This document shows positions 5,254 to 24,526 of a stretch of 64,000 nucleotides of DNA, in pieces. Origin of the DNA: a virus. Every line of letters begins with the position of its first letter. Within the stretch, counting starts at the first letter, position 1. The stretch is taken from the IMG/VR virus record IMGVR_UViG_3300007352_000013, positions 32,001 to 96,000 of that record; one strand, given 5' to 3'. The translations under genes and the position numbers were made by a program. Below the pieces are notes generated by a model, which was not told the DNA's origin, searched no databases, and saw only the letters and a list, made by a program, of their open reading frames with translations.

Positions 5254-5263
5254 AAGGATTAAT

Positions 5264-5482
5264 ATGAAAATAGAAATTTTATCAGAAAAAGAAGCCAGAC
5301 GTATTGGCTCTATTAATTTTGGTTCATGTGTTGCTTTAGATGGTTCATATTATATTATATCGGAACTTGCAATAGATACAAATAACGTATATATCATTGA
5401 TTTATCTTCTGGCTTAAAAAGAATTATATCACTTGATACTAAAGTACGTGTAATGGATAATGCCAAAATTGTTATTCCATAA
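5264..5482 (+). CDS. hypothetical protein
   Basis: SD aagga; 72 aa. Confidence 0.55.
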   Translation: MKIEILSEKEARRIGSINFGSCVALDGSYYIISELAIDTNNVYIIDLSSGLKRIISLDTKVRVMDNAKIVIP

Positions 5483-5496
5483 TAACGAGAACAAAA

Positions 5497-5832
5497 ATGT
5501 TAAATAAAAATATGGTATTTTGTTTTACAGGAAAGGGGCCAATGCCCCGTAGCCAAATGGAGGCTATGGCTATTAATGCTGGCGCATCAGTTACAAAATC
5601 TGTAAACAACAGAACAACTATATTGGTTATAATGGATATGGATAGCCAATCAACAAAAGCAAGAAAAGCTCGCGAGAATGGAATAGATTTGATTGGCCCA
5701 GAAACATTTATTTCAATGTGCAATTCTCATATAAAAAATAATGTGTCTTCTGAAAACAAAGTTAAGATTGAAAAGAAGATTATTGCAGAACAAGTTAAAA
5801 AACAACCTCTAATAAGGAAAATAATTCTATGA
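5497..5832 (+). CDS. stand-alone BRCT domain protein
   Basis: FCFTGK..MPRSQMEAMAINAGA.V..SV...TT.LV...S.K..KARE.GI.LI, resembling the LigA C-terminal BRCT. Confidence 0.85.
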   Translation: MLNKNMVFCFTGKGPMPRSQMEAMAINAGASVTKSVNNRTTILVIMDMDSQSTKARKARENGIDLIGPETFISMCNSHIKNNVSSENKVKIEKKIIAEQVKKQPLIRKIIL

Positions 5833-6020
5833 AGAAAAGAATGGCTGGCAAAAGAATAAATGGAAAATGGACACCCGAACCTTGCTCGTCTTGCCAAAAA
5901 ATCCCCGCCTTTGTAAAAGTGGGTGGAATATTCTGTAAAAAGTGCGGAAAAGGGAAAGCCGATGTTGGATCAGTTAAATCACCAATTCCAGAACCGTTTG
6001 TAGAATTGTTCCCTGTATAA
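5829..6020 (+). CDS. small zinc-finger-like protein
   Basis: CSSC and CKKC pairs. Confidence 0.5.
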   Translation: MKKRMAGKRINGKWTPEPCSSCQKIPAFVKVGGIFCKKCGKGKADVGSVKSPIPEPFVELFPV

Positions 6021-6292
6021 TGGAGATCTATATGATTCCGTGTATCGAAATTGACGAAAATGGAAATATTTCTACTTTATATAATGACTTTGTAGACCTT
6101 TACGAAGTCGGTAGAGTCCATAATGTTCGTAAAGCCAGCTATGTCGAATTTGCAGAAGAAAAACAAGAATGGCAAATAATTTCTGCTAAAACTAGCGAAG
6201 TTTTAGCTTCTGACAAAAATAGAGAAAAAGCTATTGACAAGGAAATTGAGATGTTCCAGCCCGGTGGGGTTATGTATGACAACAATAATTAG
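6020..6292 (+). CDS. conserved hypothetical protein associated with DUF1257/DUF2997/AAA loci
   Basis: I.IDENG.I.TLY.D.VDL..VG.....RKASYVEF...W...R..A...E. Confidence 0.55.
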   Translation: MEIYMIPCIEIDENGNISTLYNDFVDLYEVGRVHNVRKASYVEFAEEKQEWQIISAKTSEVLASDKNREKAIDKEIEMFQPGGVMYDNNN

Positions 6293-6440
6293 TATATTAT
6301 TTTTATTATCGGTATCATGTTTTGCCGCTTCATTCGTATTCGGCGGGAAATACAGGCTTTTTGAACCCATTCTCATGGTATTAGGGGTCTTTCTTTTGTT
6401 AGCCATGTGTATAGGTGGTATTCTTTATTATTGGAATTAA
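6276..6440 (+). CDS. small two-TM membrane protein
   Basis: Two hydrophobic stretches; ATG at 6276 preferred over track start 6234. Confidence 0.55.
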   Translation: MTTIISILFLLSVSCFAASFVFGGKYRLFEPILMVLGVFLLLAMCIGGILYYWN

Positions 6441-6444
6441 AATT

Positions 6445-6741
6445 ATGAAAACAACTGATGGATTTAAAGTTAAAAAGGAAAATACCTATTTTATAGTTAA
6501 ACCCTTTGAAATAATTGAAACTAAGTGCGAAACTGTGCATTATAGTAAGTTATTCGGAAATTATGTTTGTTATTTTCATGATTCTTATGACTCATTTTCT
6601 CCAGTAATGTTGAAAGGAATGGTATATAAATCCAAAGAAAAAGCGATAGAGAGACTTAAGAAAATACTAAAAAATAATATAAAAAGTCATGAAAAATCTA
6701 TAAAAGAATCCAAAGAAAAATTGGAGGCATTAAATGCATGA
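6445..6741 (+). CDS. hypothetical protein
   Basis: ATG at 6445; coiled-coil-like C-terminus. Confidence 0.55.
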   Translation: MKTTDGFKVKKENTYFIVKPFEIIETKCETVHYSKLFGNYVCYFHDSYDSFSPVMLKGMVYKSKEKAIERLKKILKNNIKSHEKSIKESKEKLEALNA

Positions 6742-7093
6742 ATCTAATTCTTACGCAAAAATAGATAAAGAAAAATTAATTAGTTTTTGTAAAGATTTTA
6801 TAGAGATAATAGAAAAACATCAAAAAGATAAAAATGAAGAAATTTTATCCGATTTTATCGAAAAATATAATAAAAGATGGTATAGACGTAAAAAGAATAT
6901 AACTAGAGATCAAGCACATAAAAAAATAATAACTAGTAGTATGTATTCGTGGATGTATTATCCTTGTCATGACTATGATAATCAAAAGAAATTGGCAGAA
7001 AAAATATTGAATTTATGTAATTGTTCTATTGAAGATACTGTTAATGTTACAGCAGAAGATTTGAATTTTATTCATTATAAAGAAAATGATTAA
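6734..7093 (+). CDS. hypothetical protein
   Basis: 119-aa coupled ORF. Confidence 0.6.
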   Translation: MHESNSYAKIDKEKLISFCKDFIEIIEKHQKDKNEEILSDFIEKYNKRWYRRKKNITRDQAHKKIITSSMYSWMYYPCHDYDNQKKLAEKILNLCNCSIEDTVNVTAEDLNFIHYKEND

Positions 7094-7323
7094 TGACAAC
7101 TAAAGAAAAAATGGATGGTTATTTTTCGATGTTCAATTGTCATGTAAATAATGCTTTTGATAAAGCATCAATTTCTTTTATTGAAAAATTTGGAGCAATA
7201 AGATATTGCGAAACTATTGCTAAATATTGGAATCAAGGTATTATGTCTATTTTTCATGATCCTCCAACAGAAGAAACAAAGTTCTTTGTTGACACAATAA
7301 ATGGAGTAGTAAATGAAAGATAA
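7093..7323 (+). CDS. hypothetical protein
   Basis: 76-aa coupled ORF. Confidence 0.55.
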   Translation: MTTKEKMDGYFSMFNCHVNNAFDKASISFIEKFGAIRYCETIAKYWNQGIMSIFHDPPTEETKFFVDTINGVVNER

Positions 7324-7558
7324 AATAATATATGGTGCAGCCATTAATCTTGTTGGAATTTGGGGTCCAAAAAAGATGGTATGGCATAATAGGTGTAAAC
7401 AATATTATGATAATTCTGGAAATTTTAGTATTGACAAATTGGGTCTAAATGAAAAAGATGGCATAACAGAATTTTCTTCAACAAATAAAAAAGAAGTAGA
7501 GTTGTGGGTTGAAGGTGCAAAGGCAGCGTTTAAAAGAATAAATATACTTACCAAATAG
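7313..7558 (+). CDS. hypothetical protein
   Basis: SD ggag; 81 aa. Confidence 0.55.
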   Translation: MKDKIIYGAAINLVGIWGPKKMVWHNRCKQYYDNSGNFSIDKLGLNEKDGITEFSSTNKKEVELWVEGAKAAFKRINILTK

Positions 7559-7568
7559 GAGAAAGTAA

Positions 7569-7751
7569 ATGCCTAAATTTAAAATTAAGTGGCACGGCGT
7601 ACAAAATGTGAATGGTGAAGTAATTGTGCAAGCAAAAGACGAAGAAGAAGCTATCGAAGTGGTTCAAGACGACCCGGAAGCAGGAGAACCAGAAATTGAA
7701 TGTTTTGGTCTAGACGATATAGAAGTAGATGAATGCGAAGAAATTAAGTAG
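7569..7751 (+). CDS. small highly acidic protein (DpnD/PcfM-like pattern)
   Basis: 19/60 residues D/E; K.KIKW...V.VQA.DEEEA. Confidence 0.6.
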   Translation: MPKFKIKWHGVQNVNGEVIVQAKDEEEAIEVVQDDPEAGEPEIECFGLDDIEVDECEEIK

Positions 7752-7796
7752 AAATTTATAACCAACTTATCAAACTCTCTACTATAGGGGTGCTAA

Positions 7797-7976
7797 ATGA
7801 AAAGATTTAGGATTGAATGGTCAGCAACAATACATGGAACAACTCATGTTCAAGCCGAAAATGAAGACGAAGTATATGATATGACTGATGATTTAGATAC
7901 ATCAGAAATAAATGATACAAAAGATATTTGTATAGATTACGTAGAAGAACTAGAAGTAGAAGAAGGAGATGCTTAA
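7797..7976 (+). CDS. small highly acidic protein, paralog of 7569-7751 (not in ORF track)
   Basis: MKRFRIEWSATIHGTTHVQAENEDEVYD...EVEEGDA; 19/59 D/E; SD gggg. Confidence 0.6.
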   Translation: MKRFRIEWSATIHGTTHVQAENEDEVYDMTDDLDTSEINDTKDICIDYVEELEVEEGDA

Positions 7977-8309
7977 ATGGCCCTATTAACATCAAAATAT
8001 AAAGTTATGTTTTATCATAAAACTCTTGCTACAGAAGATCTATATGATATTCATGGAATCCAAGGTCTTCCGTGGGAAGAATCTAGAAGATGTACTATAG
8101 CAAAATTATTTGATATTAAAACTAATGAACAATGCAACGAATATATTGCAATATGCAATCCATTGGATAATTTTAGTAAATCGTTAGGAAGAAAATCTTC
8201 CTTACAAGGTTTGCTTTGTACAATAACAAATAAAAAAGAACGTAAAGAAATATGGAATGAATACTATAAACAATTCCCAAGGAGAAATACATGCTATCAA
8301 AAGAAATAA
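7977..8309 (+). CDS. hypothetical protein
   Basis: 110 aa; AICNPLDNFSKSLGRK.SL conserved-looking core. Confidence 0.6.
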   Translation: MALLTSKYKVMFYHKTLATEDLYDIHGIQGLPWEESRRCTIAKLFDIKTNEQCNEYIAICNPLDNFSKSLGRKSSLQGLLCTITNKKERKEIWNEYYKQFPRRNTCYQKK

Positions 8310-8488
8310 TTATTGAGATTGATGAAAATGGTAATTGTTCGCTAGACGGCAAAGGTTTTATTGGTCCAGAATGTGAAAAGGCTATGGCAGAAATAGAATC
8401 GGTTCTTGGTAGAACTGTTAATAAAGTTCATAAGCCAGAATATTCTATGATTAATAGAACAAACGTTAGGAATAAAGAAAGGGCTTAA
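8291..8488 (+). CDS. DUF2997 protein
   Basis: IIIEIDENG.C.LDGKGF.G..C...MAEIE..LG......KPEY. Confidence 0.8.
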   Translation: MLSKEIIIEIDENGNCSLDGKGFIGPECEKAMAEIESVLGRTVNKVHKPEYSMINRTNVRNKERA

Positions 8489-8490
8489 TA

Positions 8491-8787
8491 ATGAAAGAAT
8501 TGATCGGATATATAGGAGTAGATGCTGGTTGTGTCTGGGTGGGAGATCCGTGCTATTGTGTCACGCCAGATTGCGATAGTCATCCAGCAAAAACTTGGTC
8601 AGAATTTTGTAAAAAACTAGAAGATGGTAATTTTTTTGAAAAAGATTTTAAATCTTTCGGTAACGATAATGTTTCAGAAGGAATTGGAATATGTATCGCA
8701 ACCGCACACGGAGATGGTGAATATCCCGTTTATTTAAAAAGAAATAAGGATGGAAGACCATCTCGATTAATTATTAATCTTGAATAG
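8491..8787 (+). CDS. conserved hypothetical protein (DUF4241-like motif)
   Basis: GYIGVDAG.VWVGDPCY...GDGEYPVY. Confidence 0.55.
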   Translation: MKELIGYIGVDAGCVWVGDPCYCVTPDCDSHPAKTWSEFCKKLEDGNFFEKDFKSFGNDNVSEGIGICIATAHGDGEYPVYLKRNKDGRPSRLIINLE

Positions 8788-8795
8788 GGGGATTT

Positions 8796-9065
8796 ATGAT
8801 TAATGCCGAAAATATATGGAATGTAATAATTCAAAATAATCTATGCCATCCAGATGGCAAAGATGTATTTTTTGATTTCTATAATTCTCAAAATAAAAAT
8901 AAAACATTCTCGTATAGGCTTAATTGCCAATTTTTAGGTAGGGGATGTAAGCTTTGGCAAGACAGTAATAGATTATGGATTGATATGTATAGGGAGGATG
9001 TGACTGACGCTAAACAGGCCCTTATAGATAAAGTTAATAAAGAATTAGAATCATTGAAAGGTTAG
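8796..9065 (+). CDS. hypothetical protein
   Basis: SD ggggga; 89 aa. Confidence 0.55.
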   Translation: MINAENIWNVIIQNNLCHPDGKDVFFDFYNSQNKNKTFSYRLNCQFLGRGCKLWQDSNRLWIDMYREDVTDAKQALIDKVNKELESLKG

Positions 9066-9068
9066 TGT

Positions 9069-9263
9069 ATGTCGAGTCTTTTGAATAGAAGTGCTTTAAA
9101 AAAATTCATTCTAGCTAAAATAGCCGCGTTGCGTCCCGGAATGGAAAAAAGAATCACTAGAGTTTCTTCTGAAGCATTAGATAATTATGAGGCTAAGTTA
9201 AAAAATTCTATAGAAATAGATATACATAAACACCCAAGTATCGGAAAAACTTTCAAGCCTTAA
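9069..9263 (+). CDS. hypothetical protein
   Basis: 64 aa, last + gene before terminator. Confidence 0.55.
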   Translation: MSSLLNRSALKKFILAKIAALRPGMEKRITRVSSEALDNYEAKLKNSIEIDIHKHPSIGKTFKP

Positions 9264-9272
9264 AAATAAAGA

Positions 9273-9292
9273 CCGCAGGGAATATCCTGCGG
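9273..9292 (-). terminator. intrinsic terminator between convergent genes
   Basis: ccgcagg-gaatat-cctgcgg 7-bp GC stem; A-tract at 9262-9270 gives a U-tail on the minus strand. Confidence 0.8.
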
Positions 9293-9317
9293 CCTATTAA
9301 AGTATTCGATTTATTTA

Positions 9318-9878
9318 TTAGTTTGTTGGTGCTGGTGTCGGTGCTGGATTTTGATTAAAAATACCTTTGAGTTTTTCGAACAAGGCATTTTTCTGTTCTG
9401 GTGTAAGTGAATTGAATATAGACATAACATTTTCTAGTGGTCCACCAGAGTCTGAACCAGAATTAGATTTTAATGCACCGACTGTTCCGGGAATAATTTG
9501 TGTTATACTTTCGAACGCCTTTTGCCAAGCTTGTGCCTGTGCTATTCCTAGTGCCGTCATGTTATCAGAATATTTATTATATGCATTTTCCATTGCTTTA
9601 ATTTTTTCTACTTGTGATTCTGTAACAGTTGATGCGTCAGAGTTAACATGTGCCTCTAATCTTCCTTTGAAATTCTTATCATCTTTGTCATACTCGCCAT
9701 CAAAAAGTAGGTCGCCTGTAAAATTAGAGCTAGCAGAAGCTTCTAGAGAAGTTCTTGTTTTCTTAAAATGTATTTTTGGTTGTTCTACTCCCATCGCCTG
9801 TGATGGAGGTAGAAATCCAGTAACGCATCCAGATAGAAAGCTTATAAGAACAAAAGATATCAAAGTAAGTTTAATCAT
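9318..9878 (-). CDS. lipoprotein; only minus-strand gene in window
   Basis: MIKLTLISFVLISFLSG-C lipobox; Pro/Thr/Ala tail; own terminator. Confidence 0.8.
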   Translation of the reverse strand: MIKLTLISFVLISFLSGCVTGFLPPSQAMGVEQPKIHFKKTRTSLEASASSNFTGDLLFDGEYDKDDKNFKGRLEAHVNSDASTVTESQVEKIKAMENAYNKYSDNMTALGIAQAQAWQKAFESITQIIPGTVGALKSNSGSDSGGPLENVMSIFNSLTPEQKNALFEKLKGIFNQNPAPTPAPTN

Positions 9879-9914
9879 TTTTAAATTCCTTAAACAAATA
9901 ACTCATCACAATGT

Positions 9915-9924
9915 ATTATACACA
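9915..9924 (-). promoter_or_regulatory. extended -10 promoter for the minus-strand lipoprotein
   Basis: Minus strand reads TGTGTATAAT about 37 nt upstream of the ATG at 9878. Confidence 0.5.
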
Positions 9925-9966
9925 AATACAAATTTAAAGTTTTAATTTAATTTTAAAAGGAACGCT

Positions 9967-11079
9967 ATGATAACAACCTTCGACACTCTTTATTCTTTGA
10001 ATTCAAATGGATCAATCCAAGAGTGGACTATACTTGTAAAAGATAATATTATAATCAAGAGGTATGGTCAATCAAATGGCAAGATACAAGAAACATCAGA
10101 TGTTATTGAAAAAGGTAAAAACATCGGTAAGGCAAATGCAACTACACCGGAACAACAAGCTCTAAAAGAAGCGCAAAGCCAATGGGAGAAAAAACTTAAA
10201 AGTGGATATGTTCTATCCATAGACGATGCAATAAAAGGAAAAGTAAATAAAGAATTCGTAGTCGGAGGTGTTGAGCCAATGCTAGCTAAATCCTTTAAAG
10301 ATTACGAGAATAAAATAGTATATCCTTGTTATTCACAGCCGAAACTAGATGGTCATAGGTGTATTTGTATAGTTAACAATGGAATATGCTCACTTTGGTC
10401 TAGGACAAGAAAGATCATTACAAGCGTCCCACATATTATAGAGACAATTGAAAAAACATTCCCAAATAAAAATATTATCTTGGATGGTGAATTGTATAAC
10501 CATGATTATAAAAATAAATTTGAAGAAATTACTTCATTTATAAGACAACAAACACCAAAAGTTGGATATGAAGTAGTTAAATTTTTCGTATATGATATAG
10601 TAAGCTCAGATAACTTTGAACAAAGAATATTAAATTTAAATAAAATAAAATTTACTAATGATAATATAATAAAAGTAGAAACACGAAAAGTTAATAACTC
10701 AGAAGAATTGATGGATTATTTTATAGAAGATAGAAAAAATGGCTATGAAGGTAGTATGTGTCGAAACGCCATTGGCCCTTATGAACATAAAAGATCTTAT
10801 AATTTACAAAAAATTAAAGATATGCAAGATGATGAATTTGAAATTATAGGAATTGAAAATGGTAGAGGTCGAATGAGCGAGTGTGCAATCTTCGTATGCA
10901 AGACCGTAGAAGGAAAAGAATTTTCTTGTAAAATGCAGGGTAGTTTAGAGGCTTTAAAAATATATTTAGCTAATCCGAAAACTGTAATAGGGAAATTATT
11001 GACTATACAATTTCAGGGATACACGAACGGATCTTTACCTAGATTTCCGATAGGATTAAGAATCAGGAAAGATATTTGA
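9967..11079 (+). CDS. lig: ATP-dependent DNA ligase with WGR-like N-terminal domain
   Basis: EPMLA, SQPKLDG.R, LDGELY, YEG.M, KIK, OB-fold P.FP. Confidence 0.92.
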   Translation: MITTFDTLYSLNSNGSIQEWTILVKDNIIIKRYGQSNGKIQETSDVIEKGKNIGKANATTPEQQALKEAQSQWEKKLKSGYVLSIDDAIKGKVNKEFVVGGVEPMLAKSFKDYENKIVYPCYSQPKLDGHRCICIVNNGICSLWSRTRKIITSVPHIIETIEKTFPNKNIILDGELYNHDYKNKFEEITSFIRQQTPKVGYEVVKFFVYDIVSSDNFEQRILNLNKIKFTNDNIIKVETRKVNNSEELMDYFIEDRKNGYEGSMCRNAIGPYEHKRSYNLQKIKDMQDDEFEIIGIENGRGRMSECAIFVCKTVEGKEFSCKMQGSLEALKIYLANPKTVIGKLLTIQFQGYTNGSLPRFPIGLRIRKDI

Positions 11080-11080
11080 C

Positions 11081-11734
11081 ATGAGTAAATTTTTAGATTT
11101 AACTGGACAAAAGTTTAATAGATTAACAGTCAAGCGTAGAGTAATTAATTCGAAAAATGGAAGATCTATGTGGTCGTGTATGTGTAACTGTGGTGAAGAA
11201 AAAATAGTTAGCGGCCATGATCTTAAATGCGGAGATACCAAAAGTTGCGGTTGTCTGAAAAAAGAATCTACAATCATAAATAATAAAGTTCGCAAAACAA
11301 TACATGGACATTGTAAATATAATGTGGAATCTAGAACCTATAGAATATGGTCCAGTATGCTCAATAGATGTTATAATAAGAAAAATATAGGTTATAAAAA
11401 TTATGGTCAAAGAGGAATAACGGTATGTGATAGGTGGAATCCTAAGACTGGTGGTTCTTTTGAAAATTTTCTTAAAGACATTGGAGAAATCCCAAAAGCA
11501 TTAACATTAGACAGAAAGAATAATAACATTGGGTATTCCCCAGAAAATTGTAAGTTATCAACTCCAAAAGAACAAAACAGAAATATGAGAACTAATGTAA
11601 ATTATACTTACAATAATAAAACTCAGTGTCGTATAGATTGGGCTAATGAATATGGAATGAGTTATCAAACTCTGACATACAGATTAGATGTATTGGGCTG
11701 GTCGATAGAAAAGACATTAACAACCCCCAGTTAG
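11081..11734 (+). CDS. free-standing HNH-type homing endonuclease
   Basis: DLTGQKFNRLTV, C.C.CG, TKSCGC, W..M..RC, LTLDRKNNN.GYSPENC. Confidence 0.75.
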   Translation: MSKFLDLTGQKFNRLTVKRRVINSKNGRSMWSCMCNCGEEKIVSGHDLKCGDTKSCGCLKKESTIINNKVRKTIHGHCKYNVESRTYRIWSSMLNRCYNKKNIGYKNYGQRGITVCDRWNPKTGGSFENFLKDIGEIPKALTLDRKNNNIGYSPENCKLSTPKEQNRNMRTNVNYTYNNKTQCRIDWANEYGMSYQTLTYRLDVLGWSIEKTLTTPS

Positions 11735-11764
11735 AAAACATAAAAAATATAGAAAGAATAAAAT

Positions 11765-12001
11765 ATGAACTGGAAAAAGAAAATACAATTAAAACACATA
11801 ATATGTTCAAGACCAGAATTAATGCCAGAAGATGATGTTCCGACTAATATTATAGAAGAAATTTGTGAAATATTGGAAAAAGAAGATGAATTAAAAATAT
11901 TCTGTGATGATCTGAGATATTGTAATTTGGTTTGTGAGTTTAATGATGTACTAGAAGATATATATGATTATTGTGATAATAATGGAATTTGGTTAGGATA
12001 A
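11765..12001 (+). CDS. hypothetical acidic protein
   Basis: 78 aa; FN..L..IYDYCD...IWLG. Confidence 0.6.
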   Translation: MNWKKKIQLKHIICSRPELMPEDDVPTNIIEEICEILEKEDELKIFCDDLRYCNLVCEFNDVLEDIYDYCDNNGIWLG

Positions 12002-12004
12002 AAT

Positions 12005-12187
12005 ATGAATAAAATAAGAATGAAAGTCACTATAACTGGTTTTTATGATGCCGACCCACGATGGTATCCTGAGAATTCTTCGCCAGAAGACATGTGTAAA
12101 GTTGATGTAAACAATGGCATAGATGCAATATTAGATTGTGTAGATCAAAATACATTAGAACTTAAAATTGAACCAGTTGGAGAATAA
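12005..12187 (+). CDS. hypothetical protein
   Basis: 60 aa coupled ORF. Confidence 0.55.
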   Translation: MNKIRMKVTITGFYDADPRWYPENSSPEDMCKVDVNNGIDAILDCVDQNTLELKIEPVGE

Positions 12188-12188
12188 T

Positions 12189-12437
12189 ATGAAAGCATAC
12201 ATAGCAACAGTAATAATAGAAATGCCAATATACGCAGAAAATGAAAAAGAAGCAACAAAAGTAGCAGAAAAATTCTTTATAGAAGAAGTAAAGGCATGTC
12301 CTCCCGCTGACTTAGATTTTTCTATAAAACCAATGAATAGATGCCCAGATGGATCAAACCATTCAGAATCTTGTTGGTCTAGCAAAGAAGATGAAACAAT
12401 AAGTATTTTAGAAGGAATTAATTTAAATGGTGCTTGA
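12189..12437 (+). CDS. hypothetical protein
   Basis: SD ggag before ATG 12189. Confidence 0.55.
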   Translation: MKAYIATVIIEMPIYAENEKEATKVAEKFFIEEVKACPPADLDFSIKPMNRCPDGSNHSESCWSSKEDETISILEGINLNGA

Positions 12438-12861
12438 AATAATTAAATATCCCCATAAGATTTTGAGTGCAAAATGCGAGTCTGTAGAATTTCCATTAAC
12501 TGATGAAATAGAGCAACTATGCAAAGATTTAAAAGAAACTTGCATCCATCATAATGGTCTTGGATTAGCAGCCCCACAAGTTGGATACGATTTAAGAATT
12601 TTTGTATTCAATAAAGAAGAAATAATTATCAATCCTATAATAATAGCGGGATCGAGTAAGATATGGTCAGAAGAATCTTGCTTATCTATTCCGAATGCAT
12701 CCTTTAAGGTTAGAAGATGGGAAGAAATAACTGTTGCATATTATAATATTGAAGGTAAGATTATAAACGATTTAATCCTTAAAGGGTTAGAATCTGTTAT
12801 TTTCCAGCATGAATTTGATCATCTTAAAGGGATTCTTATAAAGGATAAAGAGATTAAATAA
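12427..12861 (+). CDS. def: peptide deformylase
   Basis: GLAAPQVG, EESCLS, QHEFDHL. Confidence 0.93.
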   Translation: MVLEIIKYPHKILSAKCESVEFPLTDEIEQLCKDLKETCIHHNGLGLAAPQVGYDLRIFVFNKEEIIINPIIIAGSSKIWSEESCLSIPNASFKVRRWEEITVAYYNIEGKIINDLILKGLESVIFQHEFDHLKGILIKDKEIK

Positions 12862-13058
12862 TGGAAACTAAAAAATAAATAAAAAAACGTGTTAATAAAG
12901 AAAATAAATTGCGTAGAAAAAAATCGAATGATATTTACAAAAAACAAATAAAATGCTTCTGGACGTGGCCGTTTGGTCATATCTATATATATGGTAGTTT
13001 TGGACTCGGCAAATGTACTATTTGTAAAAAAGAAAAATATTCAGGAAGATATATATAG
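12861..13058 (+). pseudogene. interrupted ORF with CFWxWPFGH...CxxC motif, paralog of 29248-29481
   Basis: METKK*IKKRVNK...KCFWTWPFGHIY...KCTIC; in-frame TAA at 12876 between A-runs. Confidence 0.45.
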
Positions 13059-13064
13059 GTTAAA

Positions 13065-13568
13065 ATGCCAAAGAAAAATAAAAAAATAAGGCAGAAAATA
13101 AAACAAGAGAAAGAACAAAAACACGAAAAGACATTTGCGCCACAACCGAAAGTCTTAGCTATCCTAATAGGACTTCCGGGTTCTGGTAAATCTTATTACG
13201 CACAACATTGTTTAAATAATTATTATAGAATATCTCAAGATGAATTTGGTAGGTTTCCGCATTATAAAAAATTTCTTCAACTTCTAATAGAAGGATGCTC
13301 TAGGATTTGTATAGATAGAGTTAATTTTGATAGATTTCAAAGATTAAGATACGTTCTACCGGCAGAATATTTCAGATATAAAATAGTATATTATCATTTT
13401 ATGGCATCTGAAGAACAATGTTTGAAAAGAATGGCCACTAGACAAAATCATCCTACAATCAATCCAAGAGATACTGAAAAACATAAAGAAATAATAAATA
13501 GATTCAAAAAAGAATTTCATCCCATAGAAGATTTTGAGTGTGACGAATATATAGAGGTAAAGACATAA
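13065..13568 (+). CDS. P-loop kinase (AAA_33, polynucleotide-kinase-like)
   Basis: LIGLPGSGKSYYA, ISQD, IDRVN...R, RxxxR lid CLKRMATR. Confidence 0.8.
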   Translation: MPKKNKKIRQKIKQEKEQKHEKTFAPQPKVLAILIGLPGSGKSYYAQHCLNNYYRISQDEFGRFPHYKKFLQLLIEGCSRICIDRVNFDRFQRLRYVLPAEYFRYKIVYYHFMASEEQCLKRMATRQNHPTINPRDTEKHKEIINRFKKEFHPIEDFECDEYIEVKT

Positions 13569-13573
13569 GAATG

Positions 13574-13729
13574 ATATTTGGGTTATCCGATCTATTTTTA
13601 GATAAATCGAAAGAGTATTTTTCACCCCTAAAAGGGAGTTGGATCAATAGGCTGACTCAGTTACTCTTAGATTTGCTGTACGTCACAGGGTACTAAGTGC
13701 GTCTGCCAACAGCCGGATAACTCAAATAT
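13574..13729 (+). ncRNA. unassigned structured element with a four-way junction
   Basis: 16-bp closing stem 13574-89/13714-29 plus three abutting arms (13590-603, 13604-674, 13675-713); strand favoured only by a G-U pair. Confidence 0.6.
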
Positions 13730-13743
13730 TTTTTGGAGAATAT

Positions 13744-13932
13744 ATGTATAAAAATTGTGATTTCCCGACAGATTTGTTAAATCGTATAAAAGATTTAGAC
13801 TCACATGCACCAGATGCATCGTGGAATGAGCAAATTAAAACACAAAAGATCAATAGTATAGGTTTCCTAGAAAACGCAAGAATCCTTATACCACAAATTA
13901 TAAGATCAATTGATCCAAATTATAGAAAATAA
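13744..13932 (+). CDS. hypothetical protein
   Basis: SD ggag; 62 aa. Confidence 0.55.
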   Translation: MYKNCDFPTDLLNRIKDLDSHAPDASWNEQIKTQKINSIGFLENARILIPQIIRSIDPNYRK

Positions 13933-13942
13933 GGAGCTAAAA

Positions 13943-14155
13943 ATGATATTGGGTGGATCGTTATGGGTTGCTGCCGCTCTTATGTGGCAATGTTGGACTG
14001 GACCATTAGTTAGACCAGACTGGGAAAGACCCAAAACTCCAAAAGATCCGGAGTGGGAATGCTGGTTTCATACAGATTATCACGATGATGGAGATACAGA
14101 TTTGAGAGATTGGTCTTATTTTCAAAATGACACAAAAAGATTTGATACAAAATAA
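13943..14155 (+). CDS. small membrane/secreted protein with dockerin/EF-hand-like DxxDDGDxDLxD motif
   Basis: SD aaggag; hydrophobic N-terminus; DYHDDGDTDLRDWSYFQN. Confidence 0.6.
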   Translation: MILGGSLWVAAALMWQCWTGPLVRPDWERPKTPKDPEWECWFHTDYHDDGDTDLRDWSYFQNDTKRFDTK

Positions 14156-14249
14156 TATATGATATATTATGTAGTAAAATTATTTTGTACCAATTCACAA
14201 TATAAAGGATGAGAATTACAGAAATTAGAAACTTTGAAAGGATTTTCGC

Positions 14250-14564
14250 GTGCCTAATTATAAAAAAGAAATTGAAACATATCGCTGTGGAGATTTATTT
14301 AAATTTGGAAATCATAAAGAAATTTATATTTTATCCCAAACTGGATATGGTTGTGGAATGATGGTTGGACTATATGATAGTTCTAATAGAATAGCTATTA
14401 CAGGAGAACGTCCAATCTTTTTTAAAAAGGGGTTGAATGAAATTTCTCAAGAAGAAATAAATAATCTTGTAGAATCTGCGGAAAACACATTTGGAAAAAT
14501 TCAGTGCATTGGAAATATTAGTGAATTTGAATTAATAAAGAAAGAGAATATTAATGTTAACTAA
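14250..14564 (+). CDS. hypothetical protein
   Basis: GTG start after aagga. Confidence 0.55.
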   Translation: MPNYKKEIETYRCGDLFKFGNHKEIYILSQTGYGCGMMVGLYDSSNRIAITGERPIFFKKGLNEISQEEINNLVESAENTFGKIQCIGNISEFELIKKENINVN

Positions 14565-14757
14565 AGAAATTTTAATTATCTTGGATGAATTAAAAACAGA
14601 TATTCCAGAATTTGAAGCATTAGAAAGTATATCTCCAAGATTGGTAACAGATATAGCATATTGGATTAATGAGGATAGAATACATCATTCAAAGAAAGTC
14701 AGAAAAATAGGGGTCTTCAATAATGCAAGAACTAAAATTAGTAGAACAGCAAGATAA
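14554..14757 (+). CDS. hypothetical protein
   Basis: 67-aa coupled ORF. Confidence 0.45.
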   Translation: MLTKEILIILDELKTDIPEFEALESISPRLVTDIAYWINEDRIHHSKKVRKIGVFNNARTKISRTAR

Positions 14758-15136
14758 ATATGGTTGTACTATAGCTTGTATGGCGATGGTTTTAGGTAAA
14801 AAGTATTTCGAAATGAGACAATTGCTTCTGGAAAACGGTTTTTTAAAAATAAGTATCGAACCAGAATATATTGGTTACTTCGAGGATGAAATCCCAATAA
14901 TATTATCTAAATTTGAAATTAAATCAAAATATATTCCATTCGACGGATTAAATAAATTACAAAATAATTGTATATTATCGTTAATTAGAAGTGAACCAGA
15001 CAATAGAGGATATCCATTATGGAAACATTCAGTTGTATATGATACCAAAAACAAGAAAATACTAGATCCTGCAAATCAGATTAATAATTTGGAAAAATGG
15101 CGAATAAACGTAGAATATTGTTTGGAAATAGCATGA
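14723..15136 (+). CDS. C39-like cysteine peptidase
   Basis: QQDKYGC..ACMAM, HSVVYD, ILDP. Confidence 0.75.
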   Translation: MQELKLVEQQDKYGCTIACMAMVLGKKYFEMRQLLLENGFLKISIEPEYIGYFEDEIPIILSKFEIKSKYIPFDGLNKLQNNCILSLIRSEPDNRGYPLWKHSVVYDTKNKKILDPANQINNLEKWRINVEYCLEIA

Positions 15137-17019
15137 GAAAACTAGCTAATATTTTAGACTTATCACATATTAAAAATAAAAGATTCATAATCATTGGAGA
15201 CCAACATGGCTGTTACGATCAATTATTAAATCTTCTCACTAAATGCAATTACAATAAAAAAACTGATGTAATAGTTGGTTGTGGTGATATGGTTGACCGT
15301 GGCGATAAGTCATACGAAGTTATTAAGTTCTTTCAACCAGATAATCCTCATGAAGAACACAATATTTTTACTGTCATGGGGAATCATGACGATAAATTTA
15401 AACGATATTTACTGGGAAATAAGATAACCATCGGCAAAGCACTGCAAAAGAGTGTCGATGAATTTTCAATTAAGTGTCCCGATTTAATAGAAAGAGCGTC
15501 AATAGCTCTATGGCTCAGTAATTTGCCACACATAATACGTTTACCAGATTTATTAGATAGGCCATGCTATATTGTCCACGCTGGTATTGATACTAGATAT
15601 CCAATTGATCAACAATCTCAAGAAACATGCATTTACATAAGAGGAATAAATCCTAAAAATTTCTTTGATGAAAGTGCTGGCCTTTGGTATGATACTCTTG
15701 ATGGATCATATTATATCTTGAGTGGTCACATAAGTTCTAAGGTAGTAAATCCCGTTCCTTGGAACTTTTCTCTAGACGCGGGTTGCGCATCTGGAGGTAA
15801 GTTAAGAGCGATGGTTATAGAAAATAACAAATATGAGATAGTAGAGGTTGATGGATTTATGAGAAATTGTCAAATTCCAAAAGAATTTAGAGTTCAAGAA
15901 GGAATAGATGGAGAAAGATTAATTACTCCGGGTTTCGCAGTTTCTAACTCTGCATGGAAAGCAGAAGAACATCTTTGGTTGCGTTCGCTTCATATAGATA
16001 AAAATGACGAAGTTATTTCTTGTGGATTCCCTAAGTTTTTTAACATGGGGGATGGACCTAGAGAATTCCAAATAACGCAAGATAATTTGCTTGACCAGAT
16101 AGATAGGGGTAAGCCGTTGCTTGCGACTCTAAAAATAGACGGCTCCCTTCTTATAAGGTTCGTCCATAATGGAAAAGTTAGATTTAGGACAAGGGGTTCA
16201 ATGGAAGTTGGCCTAGACAATAAAGACGAAATAGAGGAATTTCTTATAAAATATCCTAAACTAGCCGATCCAACTTATTATCCAACTATGTCTTTATTAT
16301 TTGAATGGACCAGCCCAAAAAATCAAATAGTTATAAAATACGATATACCAGAACTTACACTAGTAGGTGCTGTTCTTCACGGCAAAGGCATAAAATGGTA
16401 TGATACCGAATTTGATTTAATAGACATTAATGGTCTTAAAAAGATATCAGAAGATACAGGAATATCTTGTGTCCAGCATTTTAATTTGAAAAATAGAGTA
16501 GATGTATTAGATCTAATAGAAAAGTTAAAAGCAGAAAAAGAGATTGAAGGTTATGTAATAAGAATGAATAATGACCAAGATATGGTTAAGGTTAAAAGTG
16601 ATAATTATTTTATTCTGCATGCGTTGAAATCGAATCTGAACACAGAATCTCTTATTGATCTAATTTTATCTTGGAATTTAGGACATGACTATAATTTATT
16701 TAAAGAAAAATTCATAGCGTCATATGATTATGAAACTTGGACAGTTGCTTTACCCGCTGTTTCTTCAATATTCGATGGATTTAAGCATGCATCTAATATA
16801 GGATTACATATAAATAGATTCGTCGATGAAAATAGAGATAAACCAAGAAAAGAATTTGCTTTATTAGCGCAGCAAAAATATTCTGGAGAAAAGTTATCGG
16901 CATGTTTCTCTTTACTTGACAATAAACCAATACATAAAAATGCTTTCAAGACGTGGGTGCTTCAGAATTGTAAACAGTACGAATTTAGTATGTTTAAAAA
17001 GGAAATTAAAAATGACTAA
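15133..17019 (+). CDS. metallophosphoesterase-RNA ligase (Rnl1-like) fusion
   Basis: GDQHG, GDMVDRG, GNHD, HAG, GH, LDAGC; then TLKIDGSLL, LFEW, EGYV, VKVK; ATG 15133 gives ATGA overlap. Confidence 0.85.
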   Translation: MRKLANILDLSHIKNKRFIIIGDQHGCYDQLLNLLTKCNYNKKTDVIVGCGDMVDRGDKSYEVIKFFQPDNPHEEHNIFTVMGNHDDKFKRYLLGNKITIGKALQKSVDEFSIKCPDLIERASIALWLSNLPHIIRLPDLLDRPCYIVHAGIDTRYPIDQQSQETCIYIRGINPKNFFDESAGLWYDTLDGSYYILSGHISSKVVNPVPWNFSLDAGCASGGKLRAMVIENNKYEIVEVDGFMRNCQIPKEFRVQEGIDGERLITPGFAVSNSAWKAEEHLWLRSLHIDKNDEVISCGFPKFFNMGDGPREFQITQDNLLDQIDRGKPLLATLKIDGSLLIRFVHNGKVRFRTRGSMEVGLDNKDEIEEFLIKYPKLADPTYYPTMSLLFEWTSPKNQIVIKYDIPELTLVGAVLHGKGIKWYDTEFDLIDINGLKKISEDTGISCVQHFNLKNRVDVLDLIEKLKAEKEIEGYVIRMNNDQDMVKVKSDNYFILHALKSNLNTESLIDLILSWNLGHDYNLFKEKFIASYDYETWTVALPAVSSIFDGFKHASNIGLHINRFVDENRDKPRKEFALLAQQKYSGEKLSACFSLLDNKPIHKNAFKTWVLQNCKQYEFSMFKKEIKND

Positions 17020-17576: not shown

Positions 17577-17757
17577 GTGTAAAAAACATCCAAAGTATAA
17601 GGCTAAATATAAGCCAAGAGCAAAATGTCCAACATGTGAAAGAATCTTTAGAGAGAAGATTGTATCCATAATAATGCAAAGATGTTTAGAGATACCAAAC
17701 TTTGAAACTAAAAAGTTTATGATACCGGATGATTTATTGCGATATATTCCAAAATAA
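17569..17757 (+). CDS. small Cys/His protein
   Basis: CKKHPKY...CPTC. Confidence 0.5.
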   Translation: MIKCKKHPKYKAKYKPRAKCPTCERIFREKIVSIIMQRCLEIPNFETKKFMIPDDLLRYIPK

Positions 17758-17849
17758 GAAATGCTGTAGAATTAACTTATAGAGTAGCTAAGTCTGATTT
17801 AAGTAATACTTCATTTAATGAATTTTGGATTAATAAGGATTAAAGTAAA

Positions 17850-18152: not shown

Positions 18153-18204
18153 AGTGAAAATGTATAAAATACAGATACAAAACATAGTCTATTAAAATTC
18201 AGTA

Positions 18205-18745
18205 AATTGCGCAGGTTGAACGATGAAACAAAAAGCTGTAATATCACAAAACCGACAGAATAAATTAATGGCGCAATTGTTTGGAATTTTTAGAACCCTT
18301 AAAAAGCTAGTGGCGTATAAGTAGGTAACATATTGTACGAAAGTTTATGCATTACTAAGAAGGATCAAAATGCATGACAAGGAATGGAAACACTTGAGCT
18401 ATTCAAGAAGAACGAGTCCTGTAAAATTTCAACAGCAGAAAGGATTGCGCGATTTATCGCCCTGTGTGCCAGTTGAGCCGCTTGTAATGGGCGGCGATAG
18501 GTGCAGGATAAGCCAACTCGTCAGCGACGAAAAATCCATAGGTACTGTATCCCGCTCAGTACGTTGGTCCGAGAAAGCAAGGAATAGCGTAGGCAAGTTC
18601 GTACAAGATAATTATAGTATATCTTTCTATATATAAGAAAGAAAATACTAAACTTAATAGGATATTAAGTTTGATAGGTAAAAGAGGCGGGTTGCGCGCT
18701 AAATTAAAAAAATAAATTCAAATACGTGCTGATGCACGTTAGCAA
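18205..18745 (+). ncRNA. large (about 540 nt) structured non-coding RNA, family unassigned
   Basis: GC-richer gap of about 640 nt; stems 18205-12/18271-78, 18333-41/18598-606, 18542-47/18557-62, 18622-28/18636-42, 18650-59/18663-72, 18724-29/18734-39; boundaries and strand approximate. Confidence 0.6.
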
Positions 18746-18788
18746 GACAGAAAACATTTTATTTGGATTAATTATAATAGGAGATAAA

Positions 18789-18860
18789 ATTTTATTTTTG
18801 TGTTTTGTTTGTTGGGTATTTTTCTTAGTAATTTCTTATCGTAATAAAGGTGCCAAATGA
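18789..18860 (+). CDS. 23-codon hydrophobic peptide with apparent ATT start
   Basis: SD aggag, 5-nt spacer, ATT; ILFLCFVCWVFFLVISYRNKGAK*; stop overlaps next ATG. Confidence 0.4.
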   Translation: MLFLCFVCWVFFLVISYRNKGAK

Positions 18861-19051
18861 AAAAACTATCTGCTAATTATAAAAGAAAGATTGTAATGAT
18901 ACCAGAATTAAGTAATTTGGATTTGATTCAACAGTATCAAAGTTCATCTTATGATTTAGATCGTAACATGACAGAAACTGGTTTACCTTTCGATGATATA
19001 TTAAAATATAATATAGAACTAGAAGAAGAAATTCTTAGGAGAATGAATTAA
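18857..19051 (+). CDS. hypothetical protein
   Basis: 64 aa. Confidence 0.5.
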   Translation: MKKLSANYKRKIVMIPELSNLDLIQQYQSSSYDLDRNMTETGLPFDDILKYNIELEEEILRRMN

Positions 19052-19453: not shown

Positions 19454-20863
19454 ATGAATAAATTAAAAAATATTTTCAATGAAAATGGTTTGGTTATAGA
19501 TAAATCATTTGCAACTATTTCTAACAATTTTAGAAAACTCCCCAATTTCGTTTTCGATTATTTGTCATCTCAATTAATTCATGATTCAAATCCCGAAATT
19601 GGTATATCAAAAATAAATAAAATAATAGAAGAAAATTTTGTAGACTCCGATAAAAAAGAATTAGTTAAAAGTAGAATTAAGGAATTGGGAAGATATTCTT
19701 TTTTGGGAAATATTAGTTGCAGATTTGATCAAAATAAAAATGAATATTTTGCATCTGTAAATGTTTTGGAAGATAATAATATTAGAATAAGTCCTGATGT
19801 TTTAGAAAAATATGGAGATATACTATTAACAACAGGGTGTTATGGAAGTTTATTAATTGCTTTTGAACCATTTACATTAACTAAAAAGAAGAATTATCCA
19901 TTTATTATAATAGATTTTGTTCCATTTCAAATAATAGATATAAATATAGATTCATATATAGAAAAAAGAAAGAATTTTTCGACAGATGAATGGATAGACA
20001 TTATAATAAACAGTATCGGATTTAATCCAAATCTTCTAAATAGAGAACAAAAATTATTGTACATATGCAGACTAACTCCTTTTGTAGAATCTAATCTTAA
20101 TACGATAGAATTGGGAGGAACAGAAACTGCTAAGACACATATATACAGAAATCTTAGCCAATATGGTATATTGCTTTCAGGTTCTAATCCATCTATGGCA
20201 AGTCTATTTTATAATAAACTAAGAAGAACGGTCGGTATCCTTTGTAAAAAGGATTGCGTTATATTTGACGAGATATCTGGGACTAAATTCAACGATGAAG
20301 AATTGATAAATTCTCTTAAAGACTTTATGAATAGTGGAAAATTCTCAAGGGATAAAGTAGAATTAACTTCTGGATGTTCCGTTGTATTTATAGGAAATAT
20401 TGATACCGACACAAATAAACAAGAAGTAAAAAATTATTATCATCACCTATTTGTTCCTCTACCAGTTAAAATAAGGAATGATCGCGCCTTTCTAGATAGA
20501 ATTCATGCATTCTTACCCGGATGGAAACTACCAAGAATCTCTGTGTCTAGCCTATCTTCAGATTATGGATTCATGGCAGATTACATAAGTGAAATATTTC
20601 ATAGATTTAGAGATAAAGATTATTCTAGTATTATTAAATCTAAGATTAAATTTGATAACTCAAGTTTTAGAAATCAACAAGCTGTAACCAAACTTTGTTC
20701 TGCTCTCATTAAAATAATTTATCCAGATAAAAATATGACTGATGATGAATTAAAAGAAATTCTAAATATTTCTATTGACTTGAGGCAAAGGGTTGTTGAT
20801 CAATTAGGAATCATAGCACCTAGTGAATTCAAGGATATCAAAATAAAATGTTCAATAATTTAA
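19454..20863 (+). CDS. BrxL-like AAA+ ATPase without Lon protease domain (TIGR02688-type)
   Basis: RLTPFVESNLNTIELG...AKTHIY, LFYN, VG......V.FDEI, LKDFMNSGKFSR, FIGNI, DRAFLDRIH..LPGW..P, DYGF..DY.SE.FH, R.Q.AV.KL. Confidence 0.82.
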   Translation: MNKLKNIFNENGLVIDKSFATISNNFRKLPNFVFDYLSSQLIHDSNPEIGISKINKIIEENFVDSDKKELVKSRIKELGRYSFLGNISCRFDQNKNEYFASVNVLEDNNIRISPDVLEKYGDILLTTGCYGSLLIAFEPFTLTKKKNYPFIIIDFVPFQIIDINIDSYIEKRKNFSTDEWIDIIINSIGFNPNLLNREQKLLYICRLTPFVESNLNTIELGGTETAKTHIYRNLSQYGILLSGSNPSMASLFYNKLRRTVGILCKKDCVIFDEISGTKFNDEELINSLKDFMNSGKFSRDKVELTSGCSVVFIGNIDTDTNKQEVKNYYHHLFVPLPVKIRNDRAFLDRIHAFLPGWKLPRISVSSLSSDYGFMADYISEIFHRFRDKDYSSIIKSKIKFDNSSFRNQQAVTKLCSALIKIIYPDKNMTDDELKEILNISIDLRQRVVDQLGIIAPSEFKDIKIKCSII

Positions 20864-21345: not shown

Positions 21346-21864
21346 ATGGAAGTTGGAGATAAAGTGATAGAAGAATGGAAAGATATTAAAGAATATGAGG
21401 GATTGTATCAGATATCTAATTATGGATTAGTAAAATCCTTTATTTCAAATAAAATATTAAAATATGATATAAAATATGATGGCCATAAAAGGGTAACTCT
21501 TTGTAGAAAAGGTAAAACTAAAAAATTTAATGTCCACAGATTAGTTTTAGAGACTTTCGTTGGTTCATGTCCAGAAGGAATGGAATGTCGTCACTTAGAT
21601 AATGATGCATCAAACAATAAAGTGTCAAATCTAGAGTGGTCAACGCATTATGAAAATATGCAAGATAAATATAAATTTAAAACAATAATAAGAGAAAAAT
21701 GTATAAGAAAAAATTGTAAATTAAACGTAATACAAATTAGAATTATAAGATATTTATTAAAAACAAAAGTATTATTACAAAAAGAAATTGCAAAAATATT
21801 TGATGTCGCAGATTCTCAAATATCAGAAATTAAAAATAATAATCAATGGAGTCATATACGATGA
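21346..21864 (+). CDS. NUMOD4-HNH homing endonuclease
   Basis: EEWKDIKEYEGLYQISNYG, VHRLVLETF, CRHLDND..NN..SNLEW.T..EN, C-terminal HTH. Confidence 0.88.
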   Translation: MEVGDKVIEEWKDIKEYEGLYQISNYGLVKSFISNKILKYDIKYDGHKRVTLCRKGKTKKFNVHRLVLETFVGSCPEGMECRHLDNDASNNKVSNLEWSTHYENMQDKYKFKTIIREKCIRKNCKLNVIQIRIIRYLLKTKVLLQKEIAKIFDVADSQISEIKNNNQWSHIR

Positions 21865-22592
21865 GGTATTGTGGAGGAAAATTTAGAATAGCCAAGTCAC
21901 TTACCAATTTTTTAAAATATGTTAGAAAACAAAATCAAGTATTTGTTGATGGAATGGTTGGAGGTGGAAGTATAATAAGATTTATTGATGGAAATAGGAT
22001 AGCAAATGATAAATGCCCATATCTTATAGAATTTTATAAGGCAATCCAAAATGGCTGGAGACCAAAAGAAAATCTTTCTGAACAAGATTATAAAAGATTA
22101 CAGAAATTATATAAAGATGGGGTATGTAACGGAGAAATAGGATTCGGGCTATATTTTTGTTCTTGGGGTGGTAAATTTAATGGTGGTTATGCTAGAAATT
22201 CTAAATTTGATAAATCCTTCAAATTAGTTAACGGTCAACTTAAAGATTGCTATAAATTATCAGATTCAATAAATGACGTTAAATTTATATGTTCAGATTA
22301 TGAAGATTTATTAAAATATCATTTAAAAGTTTTTCAAGATATAAAGTCTAGGTGCTTAATATATTTTGATATTCCATATTTTGGAACTACAGAATACAGA
22401 TTTAAATTCGATCATATTCGTTTTTGGGAAGTAATTAGAGAGTATTCAACTATACACGATATTTATATTAGTGAATACGTAGCGCCAGAAGATTTTGAAT
22501 GTGTATGGAGTATGGAAAGAAAAACTAATTTAAATACTAAAGATGCATGTAAGTCAGACAGGATAGAAAAATTGTTTAAATACATGGGATAA
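21861..22592 (+). CDS. DNA adenine methyltransferase (D12/Dam family)
   Basis: MRYCGGK, FVDGMVGGGS, IAND, catalytic IYFDIPY (DPPY variant), ISEY. Confidence 0.82.
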   Translation: MRYCGGKFRIAKSLTNFLKYVRKQNQVFVDGMVGGGSIIRFIDGNRIANDKCPYLIEFYKAIQNGWRPKENLSEQDYKRLQKLYKDGVCNGEIGFGLYFCSWGGKFNGGYARNSKFDKSFKLVNGQLKDCYKLSDSINDVKFICSDYEDLLKYHLKVFQDIKSRCLIYFDIPYFGTTEYRFKFDHIRFWEVIREYSTIHDIYISEYVAPEDFECVWSMERKTNLNTKDACKSDRIEKLFKYMG

Positions 22593-22807: not shown

Positions 22808-23053
22808 ATGAAAAAAGAGCTAAGTCGTAGCCCACAAAATATAAATGGAAATACTTGGTATTACGAAGAAAATGATGGTATACATATAATTCATTCTTTC
22901 AACGGTCCCAATTTACCTATGGTAGTTCAAATTAAAATTCCTTATAAAAAACTTAGGGCGACTATGAAAAGATTAAATAAAACTAGACCGAATAGGTCTC
23001 CTGTAGTAGAAAGGGTTAAGAAAAATGGACGGAATGCAAAGATTCATAAATAA
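22808..23053 (+). CDS. hypothetical protein
   Basis: 81 aa; WYYEE...I.I. Confidence 0.55.
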   Translation: MKKELSRSPQNINGNTWYYEENDGIHIIHSFNGPNLPMVVQIKIPYKKLRATMKRLNKTRPNRSPVVERVKKNGRNAKIHK

Positions 23054-23261
23054 GATGTGGGAATGGGGTTGCGAAGTAAAACCAAAAGAGATAATTGCAA
23101 AAGAACAGCAAATAGAAAAGCAAGTCAAAAAATTACTAGAAAGACTTCACAGAATAAAAAAAACTAGACAATATAAAGATATGATTATGTTAGAATCTGA
23201 TGTATATAAGATATACAAACTGATTGAAAGATATGACGATTATATTATGAACGGGGAATAA
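23025..23261 (+). CDS. hypothetical protein
   Basis: 78 aa; start uncertain. Confidence 0.45.
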   Translation: MDGMQRFINKMWEWGCEVKPKEIIAKEQQIEKQVKKLLERLHRIKKTRQYKDMIMLESDVYKIYKLIERYDDYIMNGE

Positions 23262-24241: not shown

Positions 24242-24526
24242 ATGAATAACATTTGTTATATATGTAATATTAATCCGGGAGTGGAGTGTCCGGGTAGAAA
24301 ACCAAATGAAAGAACAAAATGTTTATCTTGTTTAAGAAAATATTTGATAGTAGAAAATATACATAATTCAATATATCAATTAGAATGTATGATAATTATA
24401 ATAAAACATAAAAATGATTGGGAAGAGCAGATAAGAGAAATCATTGAGTTTTATAAAAACAAAGAAAGAAATATTCCAAAATCTGAATTTTACAAAAGTT
24501 TATTAGAGATTAATAATGAAGAATAA
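24242..24526 (+). CDS. hypothetical protein
   Basis: CYIC...CLSC. Confidence 0.5.
   Translation: MNNICYICNINPGVECPGRKPNERTKCLSCLRKYLIVENIHNSIYQLECMIIIIKHKNDWEEQIREIIEFYKNKERNIPKSEFYKSLLEINNEE

Follow-up and report, generated by a model that had tools for sequence, protein, structure and literature searches.

The window analysed here, 64,000 nt in length, comprised bases 32001-96000 of a 129-kb IMG/VR virus record (IMGVR_UViG_3300007352_000013). The genome had a G+C content of about 30%, and all of its genes were carried on the + strand. The locus under study lay between a gene for a metallophosphatase fused to a T4 Rnl1-type RNA ligase (15097-17019, +) and a gene for a BrxL-like, MCM-like ATPase (19454-20863, +), an interval that otherwise held small + strand ORFs of no family. 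An AAA_33 kinase-like gene (13065-13568, +) was located further upstream, and genes for an HNH endonuclease (21346-21864, +) and a Dam methylase (21846-22592, +) were located downstream. The kinase-like gene and the fusion gene made up a T4-like RNA repair set. In two relatives (L015 and L016), the fusion was split into a 233-aa Metallophos gene and a 404-aa gene, which flanked a GIY-YIG endonuclease gene; the 404-aa gene, presumed to be the ligase part, had no Pfam match on record.

No close cultured phage was found; the best tblastn match of the BrxL-like protein among GenBank phages was 32.5% identical, and none exceeded 33%. The phage belongs to a clade of uncultured large phages that has no cultured relative. 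Identical products of the ORFs at 18370-18636 and 18857-19051 were on record on a 172,525-base contig, so this phage has also been assembled to a greater length than in the 129-kb record.

Once an 88-aa ORF was discounted, positions 18153-18856 formed a stretch of 704 nt without a + strand ORF of at least 50 aa, whereas the other such gaps in the window measured 225 nt or less. A preliminary description made from the sequence had named this the longest intergenic gap of the window and richer in G+C than its flanks, and both statements were correct: G+C was 0.41-0.485 at 18300-18600 versus 0.22-0.30 in the flanks. The G+C island of the region was the third highest 150-nt island in the 129-kb genome, and the locus was present as a single copy. 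It was flanked by a 100-aa ORF upstream and a 64-aa ORF downstream, both complete and both kept as such in the relative L002. No gene is interrupted by the region, which rules out an intron of the usual kind. More G+C islands were recorded at G000 22415-22564, 22996-23145, 24297-24446, and 17661-17810. The five tRNA genes of the genome were more than 30 kb away from the locus (G000 5188-17007, outside the window); these were Glu-UUC, Leu-CAA, Lys-UUU, Ile-UAU, and Arg-UCU, all of which read A/U-rich codons.

Relatives were gathered by using the neighbouring proteins as anchors and collecting the contigs that encode their homologs, and the candidate RNA was searched for with an nhmmer profile. 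About 15 related phage lineages had a common gene order (kinase, phosphatase-ligase, variable small ORFs or homing endonucleases, BrxL-like gene, and Dam). The profile search detected the RNA in three other lineages only, four in all with the window: L003 (L003:2455-3055 in IMGVR_UViG_3300012232_000010; 70% identity), L021 (L021:1-456, a Logan contig with the 5' end cut off), and L092 (L092:2116-2716, identical in L093 and L094). The syntenic contigs L010-L020, L023-L027, and L099-L101 gave no match, about ten relatives being without the RNA, and blastn against GenBank phages gave none either. When IMG/VR, JGI metagenomes, and GTDB genomes were scanned with patterns, the L003 phage was returned again together with chance matches; L028, L029, L097, and L098 were discarded as chance matches, and L064 was discarded with a match that falls inside an ORF. 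The pattern used for the JGI metagenomes missed L093 by one mismatch, and further members may therefore exist there. The RNA family occurs in four related phage lineages and is rare.

Two other features of the relatives were recorded. A ribosome recycling factor gene (PF01765) was located 400-600 nt upstream of the RNA in L003 (L003:1355-1837) and L092 (L092:1268-1732); a link between this gene and the RNA was rejected, as the genome of the window has no ribosome recycling factor. In another sublineage, four contigs had a 396-nt gene-free gap upstream of a 104-aa gene (L015:3484-3879, L016:4733-5128, L099:182-577, and L100:1980-2375), with a G+C content of 0.32 and no similarity to the RNA.

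The closest relative was L002/L004, whose BrxL-like protein was 91% identical. In L002, a 5' domain and a terminal hairpin of the locus were kept, and the sequence corresponding to 18291-18712 was missing. Its place was taken by an unrelated, purine-rich sequence of about 230 nt and by a 242-aa ORF (L002:2666-3394; IMGVR_UViG_3300037424_000503) with a C-terminal DUF559 (Vsr-like endonuclease) domain (Pfam E 5e-10). This ORF looks like a free-standing homing endonuclease, and it may target the RNA gene. Across the relatives, HNH, GIY-YIG, and other small genes made a mosaic of the interval from the ligase to the BrxL-like gene. The presence of the RNA in four lineages, its absence from about ten, and the replacement of its core in L002 showed that it is an optional (accessory) cassette, lying in a hypervariable region that homing endonucleases have shaped.

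Covariation was scored on three sequences, those of the window, L003, and L021. The consensus fold consisted of 99 pairs in 14 helices, with 95.6% of cells paired. Both sides had changed with pairing maintained in 24 of the 99 pairs, compared with 9.6 ± 2.3 in shuffles (0 of 500 reached 24), a kind of control that related sequences can inflate; slid controls gave 1-4 compensatory pairs. At least one double change was seen in 11 of the 14 helices. With four lineages, of which L003 and L092 were close to each other in the core, a formal test of the R-scape type is low in power, and this rarity limits both the statistical strength and the breadth of the case. Against shuffles, folding of single sequences gave z values of -2.2 (whole gap), -2.6 (core), and -1.9 (L021 core); these are modest and the sequence alone is not convincing, so the case rests on the comparison of homologs, which the preliminary description had put forward as a check and which came out in favour of a folded RNA. 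Covariation backed the long-range helices 18333-41/18598-606 and 18398-404/18582-88, the P5-P7 unit, P9, and the two 3' hairpins. No variation was seen in the purine-rich junctions and some of the loops, and the peripheral hairpins varied in length and sequence.

The whole conserved module, which is the candidate RNA gene, extended over about 18200-18765 (+); conservation with L003 and L092 began about 10 nt before 18207 and ended shortly past the terminal hairpin. The 5' domain (18200-18330) was closed by 18207-12/18271-76 and had a small hairpin at about 18296-18315. The arms of its closing pairing (6-8 bp) were invariant in the window, L002, L003, and L092, and the domain was conserved in sequence, with an interior that differed among lineages and had no consistent fold or covariation support; L002, as stated, has this domain and no core. 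A 33-aa frame at 18224-18325 was open in several lineages and had no clear coding signature when the aligned codons were read by eye, and in L017 its conserved nucleotides were read in another frame.

The core domain (18333-18606) was closed by the 9-bp helix 18333-41/18598-606, which was predicted independently in the window and in L021 and had two compensatory pairs and one change from G-C to G-U in L021. The first hairpin inside it, P2 (18345-18377), had 10 pairs, one of them compensatory, a loop of lineage-variable length with a Shine-Dalgarno-like AGGA, and a 3' arm containing the AUG of the 88-aa ORF. The P2 loop (18351-61) was perfectly complementary over 11 nt to part of the 5' UTR of the 64-aa gene (18822-32), a match that was judged to be due to chance because the loop was not conserved in the relatives. 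The long-range helix P4 (18398-404/18582-88) had 7 pairs, with a U-A pair replaced by C-G in L021, and enclosed an inner domain. The local hairpin 18393-97/18403-07 named in the preliminary description was present, but it was less well supported than P4 and the pairing 18378-81/18393-96. The other pairings that it named were found as described, at 18205-12/18271-78, 18333-41/18598-606, 18478-83/18491-96, 18542-47/18557-62, 18623-28/18638-43, 18650-59/18663-72, and 18724-29/18734-39, and in the 18347/18369 hairpin.

The inner three-helix unit (18416-18509) consisted of P5 (18416-23/18502-09; four compensatory pairs), P6 (18429-37/18468-77; three), and P7 (18478-83/18491-96; one). P6 carried a variable distal hairpin (18440-65), whose sequence was different in each lineage and whose hairpin form was kept. 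P7 carried in L003 and L092 a 39-nt extension capped by a UUCG tetraloop. Two hairpins followed, P8 (18518-22/18526-30), whose loop was 9 nt longer in L021, and P9 (18536-38/18565-67 enclosing 18542-47/18557-62), which had two compensatory pairs; the A-rich junction between them (18529-18539) was invariant in all four lineages.

Beyond the core, P10 (18616-21/18646-51, with an inner segment 18623-28/18638-43) had four compensatory pairs over its two segments, and P11 (18650-59/18663-72) had five and an invariant loop. The tail (18673-18704), a purine-rich element followed by a G+C-rich one, was largely invariant in the four lineages and may pair with 18269-74 or 18533-37, pairings that showed no variation. 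The terminal hairpin (18724-18739) had 6 pairs, with A-U replaced by G-C in L021, and was followed by a conserved A-rich stretch; in L002, the stop codon of the endonuclease ORF fell in its loop. This hairpin was not followed by a U-tract on the + strand and thus does not qualify as a canonical terminator in that orientation, and neither a promoter nor a + strand terminator could be assigned to the RNA. A purine-rich word of 6-7 nt was present twice, at 18498-18504 and 18675-18681, and both copies were changed alike in L021; the two may be equivalent binding sites or contacts.

The gap would be explained differently if the 88-aa ORF (18370-18636, +) were translated, with the G+C richness reflecting recent acquisition. 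The frame was open in the window and in L003 (88 and 103 aa, respectively), an AGGA stood 5 nt ahead of its ATG, and gene callers predicted it. However, substitutions at the three codon positions were 24/18/18 versus L003 and 27/26/24 versus L021, showing no third-position bias, indels of 1 and 2 nt put its conserved nucleotide blocks into different frames, and in L021 the frame stopped after 8 codons. The ORF had no Pfam or PHROG match and no protein homolog, and a long minus-strand ORF of L003 had no protein homolog either. Codon-level conservation of the ORF, which the preliminary description had named as a finding that would refute the RNA, was looked for and not seen. From these comparisons the coding reading appears largely refuted already, the ORF was judged to be no gene, and a protein encoded here is extremely improbable.

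A motif of 15-23 nt beginning at the AUG of the false ORF (18371-18385 in the window) was kept in all RNA-bearing lineages, and was also present in L002 (about 2625-2647) and L017 (about 3665-3687), both of which are without the core; in these two it reads as a 6-codon mini-frame. It was considered as a repeated phage promoter and rejected, since it was not repeated in the genome, and it could be an RNA remnant or an endonuclease recognition site.

The RNA strand is the + strand. The + strand consensus contained 22 G.U pairs and one A.C, with a consensus fold energy of -82.5 kcal/mol (covariation term -6.2), versus -75.1 (-1.2) for the minus strand, whose consensus fold had about ten A.C mismatches. 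This asymmetry bears on the possibility that the locus acts as DNA, as an origin of replication, a site of packaging or recombination, or a homing-endonuclease target, whose hairpins would form in the DNA. Such an element would suit a position in a replication module beside the ligase, BrxL/MCM-like ATPase, and Dam genes, and an endonuclease gene does occupy the same site in L002. However, G.U was tolerated on one strand only, a UUCG tetraloop capped one extension, and compensatory changes occurred in nested long-range helices up to 270 nt apart. The absence of iterons and tandem repeats is evidence against an origin at the DNA level, and the region contained no A+T-rich unwinding block. A DNA-level role is consequently quite unlikely.

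Known RNA families were searched with cmscan and Rfam 15, for the whole window at the gathering score and for the RNAs of the window, L021, and L003 at E<=10. At the gathering score, the window gave no match; at E<=10, the three RNAs gave unrelated chance matches only, far below the gathering scores. The GOLLD, ROOL, and OLE covariance models, the group I intron models, and the RNase P models (bacterial, archaeal, and other) gave no match at E<=10 to the three homologs, and ARAGORN found no tRNA or tmRNA in the window. The preliminary description had been unable to assign a family, and these searches, which covered the tmRNA and intron models as well, agree with it. A CsrB/RsmZ-type sponge was rejected: GGA occurred 8 times in 541 nt, compared with 10.2 ± 2.6 in shuffles, at the density of the rest of the window. 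The HEARO or omega RNA of an IscB/TnpB system was also rejected, with no Rfam match and no IscB or TnpB among the ten neighbouring ORFs scanned; the sole HNH protein among these was a 172-aa NUMOD4/HNH_3 protein without a RuvC domain match.

A divergent RNA of a known catalytic or mobile class, such as an ORF-less group I or II intron, an RNase P RNA, or a tmRNA, might be missed by Rfam. These genomes are rich in homing endonucleases and inteins, and the way in which the RNA is present in some lineages and absent from others, with an endonuclease gene in its place in one of them, is reminiscent of intron dynamics. The RNA is also like ORF-less phage group I introns in its core of 280-300 nt, its closing long-range helix, and its sister genome with an endonuclease gene at the same site. 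Unlike group I introns, it lies outside genes, matches no model, and has no splice-site features that could be found. A scan for conserved non-nested pairings, including a P3/P7-type pseudoknot, found none with convincing covariation among the four sequences, which give little power. The ORFs on either side are complete, leaving no host gene interrupted, and nothing homologous to the core surrounds the endonuclease gene of L002. Membership of a known class is therefore very unlikely.

It is also unlikely that the RNA acts in cis, as a leader or a processing element, on the downstream operon, which runs from the 64-aa gene through the BrxL-like gene. In favour of such an element, the RNA and its neighbours share a strand, neither a promoter nor a terminator could be detected, and even L002 keeps the terminal hairpin together with the A-rich sequence that follows. 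Against a leader, L002 has the same downstream genes without the core, L003 and L092 have another gene between the RNA and the 64-aa gene, and the downstream genes of L021 differ. A length of about 400 nt with 12-14 helices also far exceeds known leaders.

The comparisons make it probable that the locus encodes a stable structured non-coding RNA of a new family. The preliminary description, which had proposed a structured non-coding RNA of about 540 nt in the size class of ROOL and GOLLD, is supported by the covariation among homologs and by the noncoding character of the ORF. The well-supported part is 18333-18739, and with the whole conserved module the RNA would measure roughly 450-560 bases. 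It would be the product of a free-standing gene for a highly structured RNA of an undescribed family, read from the + strand as are the neighbouring replication and RNA-repair genes, and it may have its own signals or be cut from a longer transcript. In the proposed fold, the 9-bp helix would close a second long-range helix that in turn closes the three-helix unit and two hairpins, and two more hairpins and the conserved tail would lie 3' of the core.

We infer that the RNA works as a folded molecule. It would act in trans, with invariant junctions and loops that would make tertiary contacts or serve as binding sites for a protein or RNA partner, and not via a peptide or simple antisense pairing. 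No neighbouring gene showed strict co-occurrence with the RNA, and the relatives without it keep the ligase and the ATPase. The nearby RNA repair, replication, and ribosome recycling factor genes could be candidate partners, and any partner or function named from them would be pure conjecture.

By analogy, the role may be of the same kind as those of GOLLD, ROOL, and OLE. GOLLD and ROOL are large ornate RNAs, often borne by phages or prophages, that cryo-EM showed to form homo-oligomeric RNA-only assemblies (PMC12286853). The RNA described here resembles them in being phage-borne, in its several hundred nucleotides with many helices and long-range closing pairings, in its conserved junctions and variable peripheral hairpins, and in its patchy accessory distribution. 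Unlike them, it matches neither Rfam model at E<=10 and is not beside tRNA genes, and it is smaller than GOLLD. OLE RNA, of about 610 nt, forms a ribonucleoprotein with OapA/B/C in extremophilic Firmicutes. The present RNA falls in the same size class as OLE, has a similarly ornate fold, and is likewise presumed to function in folded form together with partners; it is unlike OLE in having no Rfam match, a phage rather than a chromosomal context, and no conserved neighbouring partner gene that was found. The pRNA of phi29, about 120-170 nt, is part of the packaging motor; it is essential to small podoviruses, which encode it at the end of the genome. Both RNAs are phage-encoded, and pRNA is a folded machine part rather than a base-pairing regulator; the present RNA is, however, 3-4 times larger, is encoded among replication genes, and is dispensable in the clade.

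Intricately folded RNAs of large size are rare in nature, and to our knowledge every class so far (RNase P, introns, OLE, GOLLD, and ROOL) has been biologically or structurally instructive. With its compact, well-defined core of about 280-400 nt, the present RNA lends itself to structural work. Its dispensability in the clade and its exchange for a homing-endonuclease gene point to an accessory role, for example in host takeover or counter-defence, and the genome of the window and L002 are a natural pair with and without the RNA. A bolder proposal, in which a new large phage RNA class carries out catalysis or RNA-only self-assembly and is the homing target of the DUF559 endonuclease, the cassettes competing in co-infection, has a small chance of being correct. 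The relative L017 had a ThyX gene with an intein (L017:9652-11562; Intein_splicing, weak match) and 840 nt without a called gene (L017:3405-4245) that weakly resembled the 5' domain of the RNA locus.
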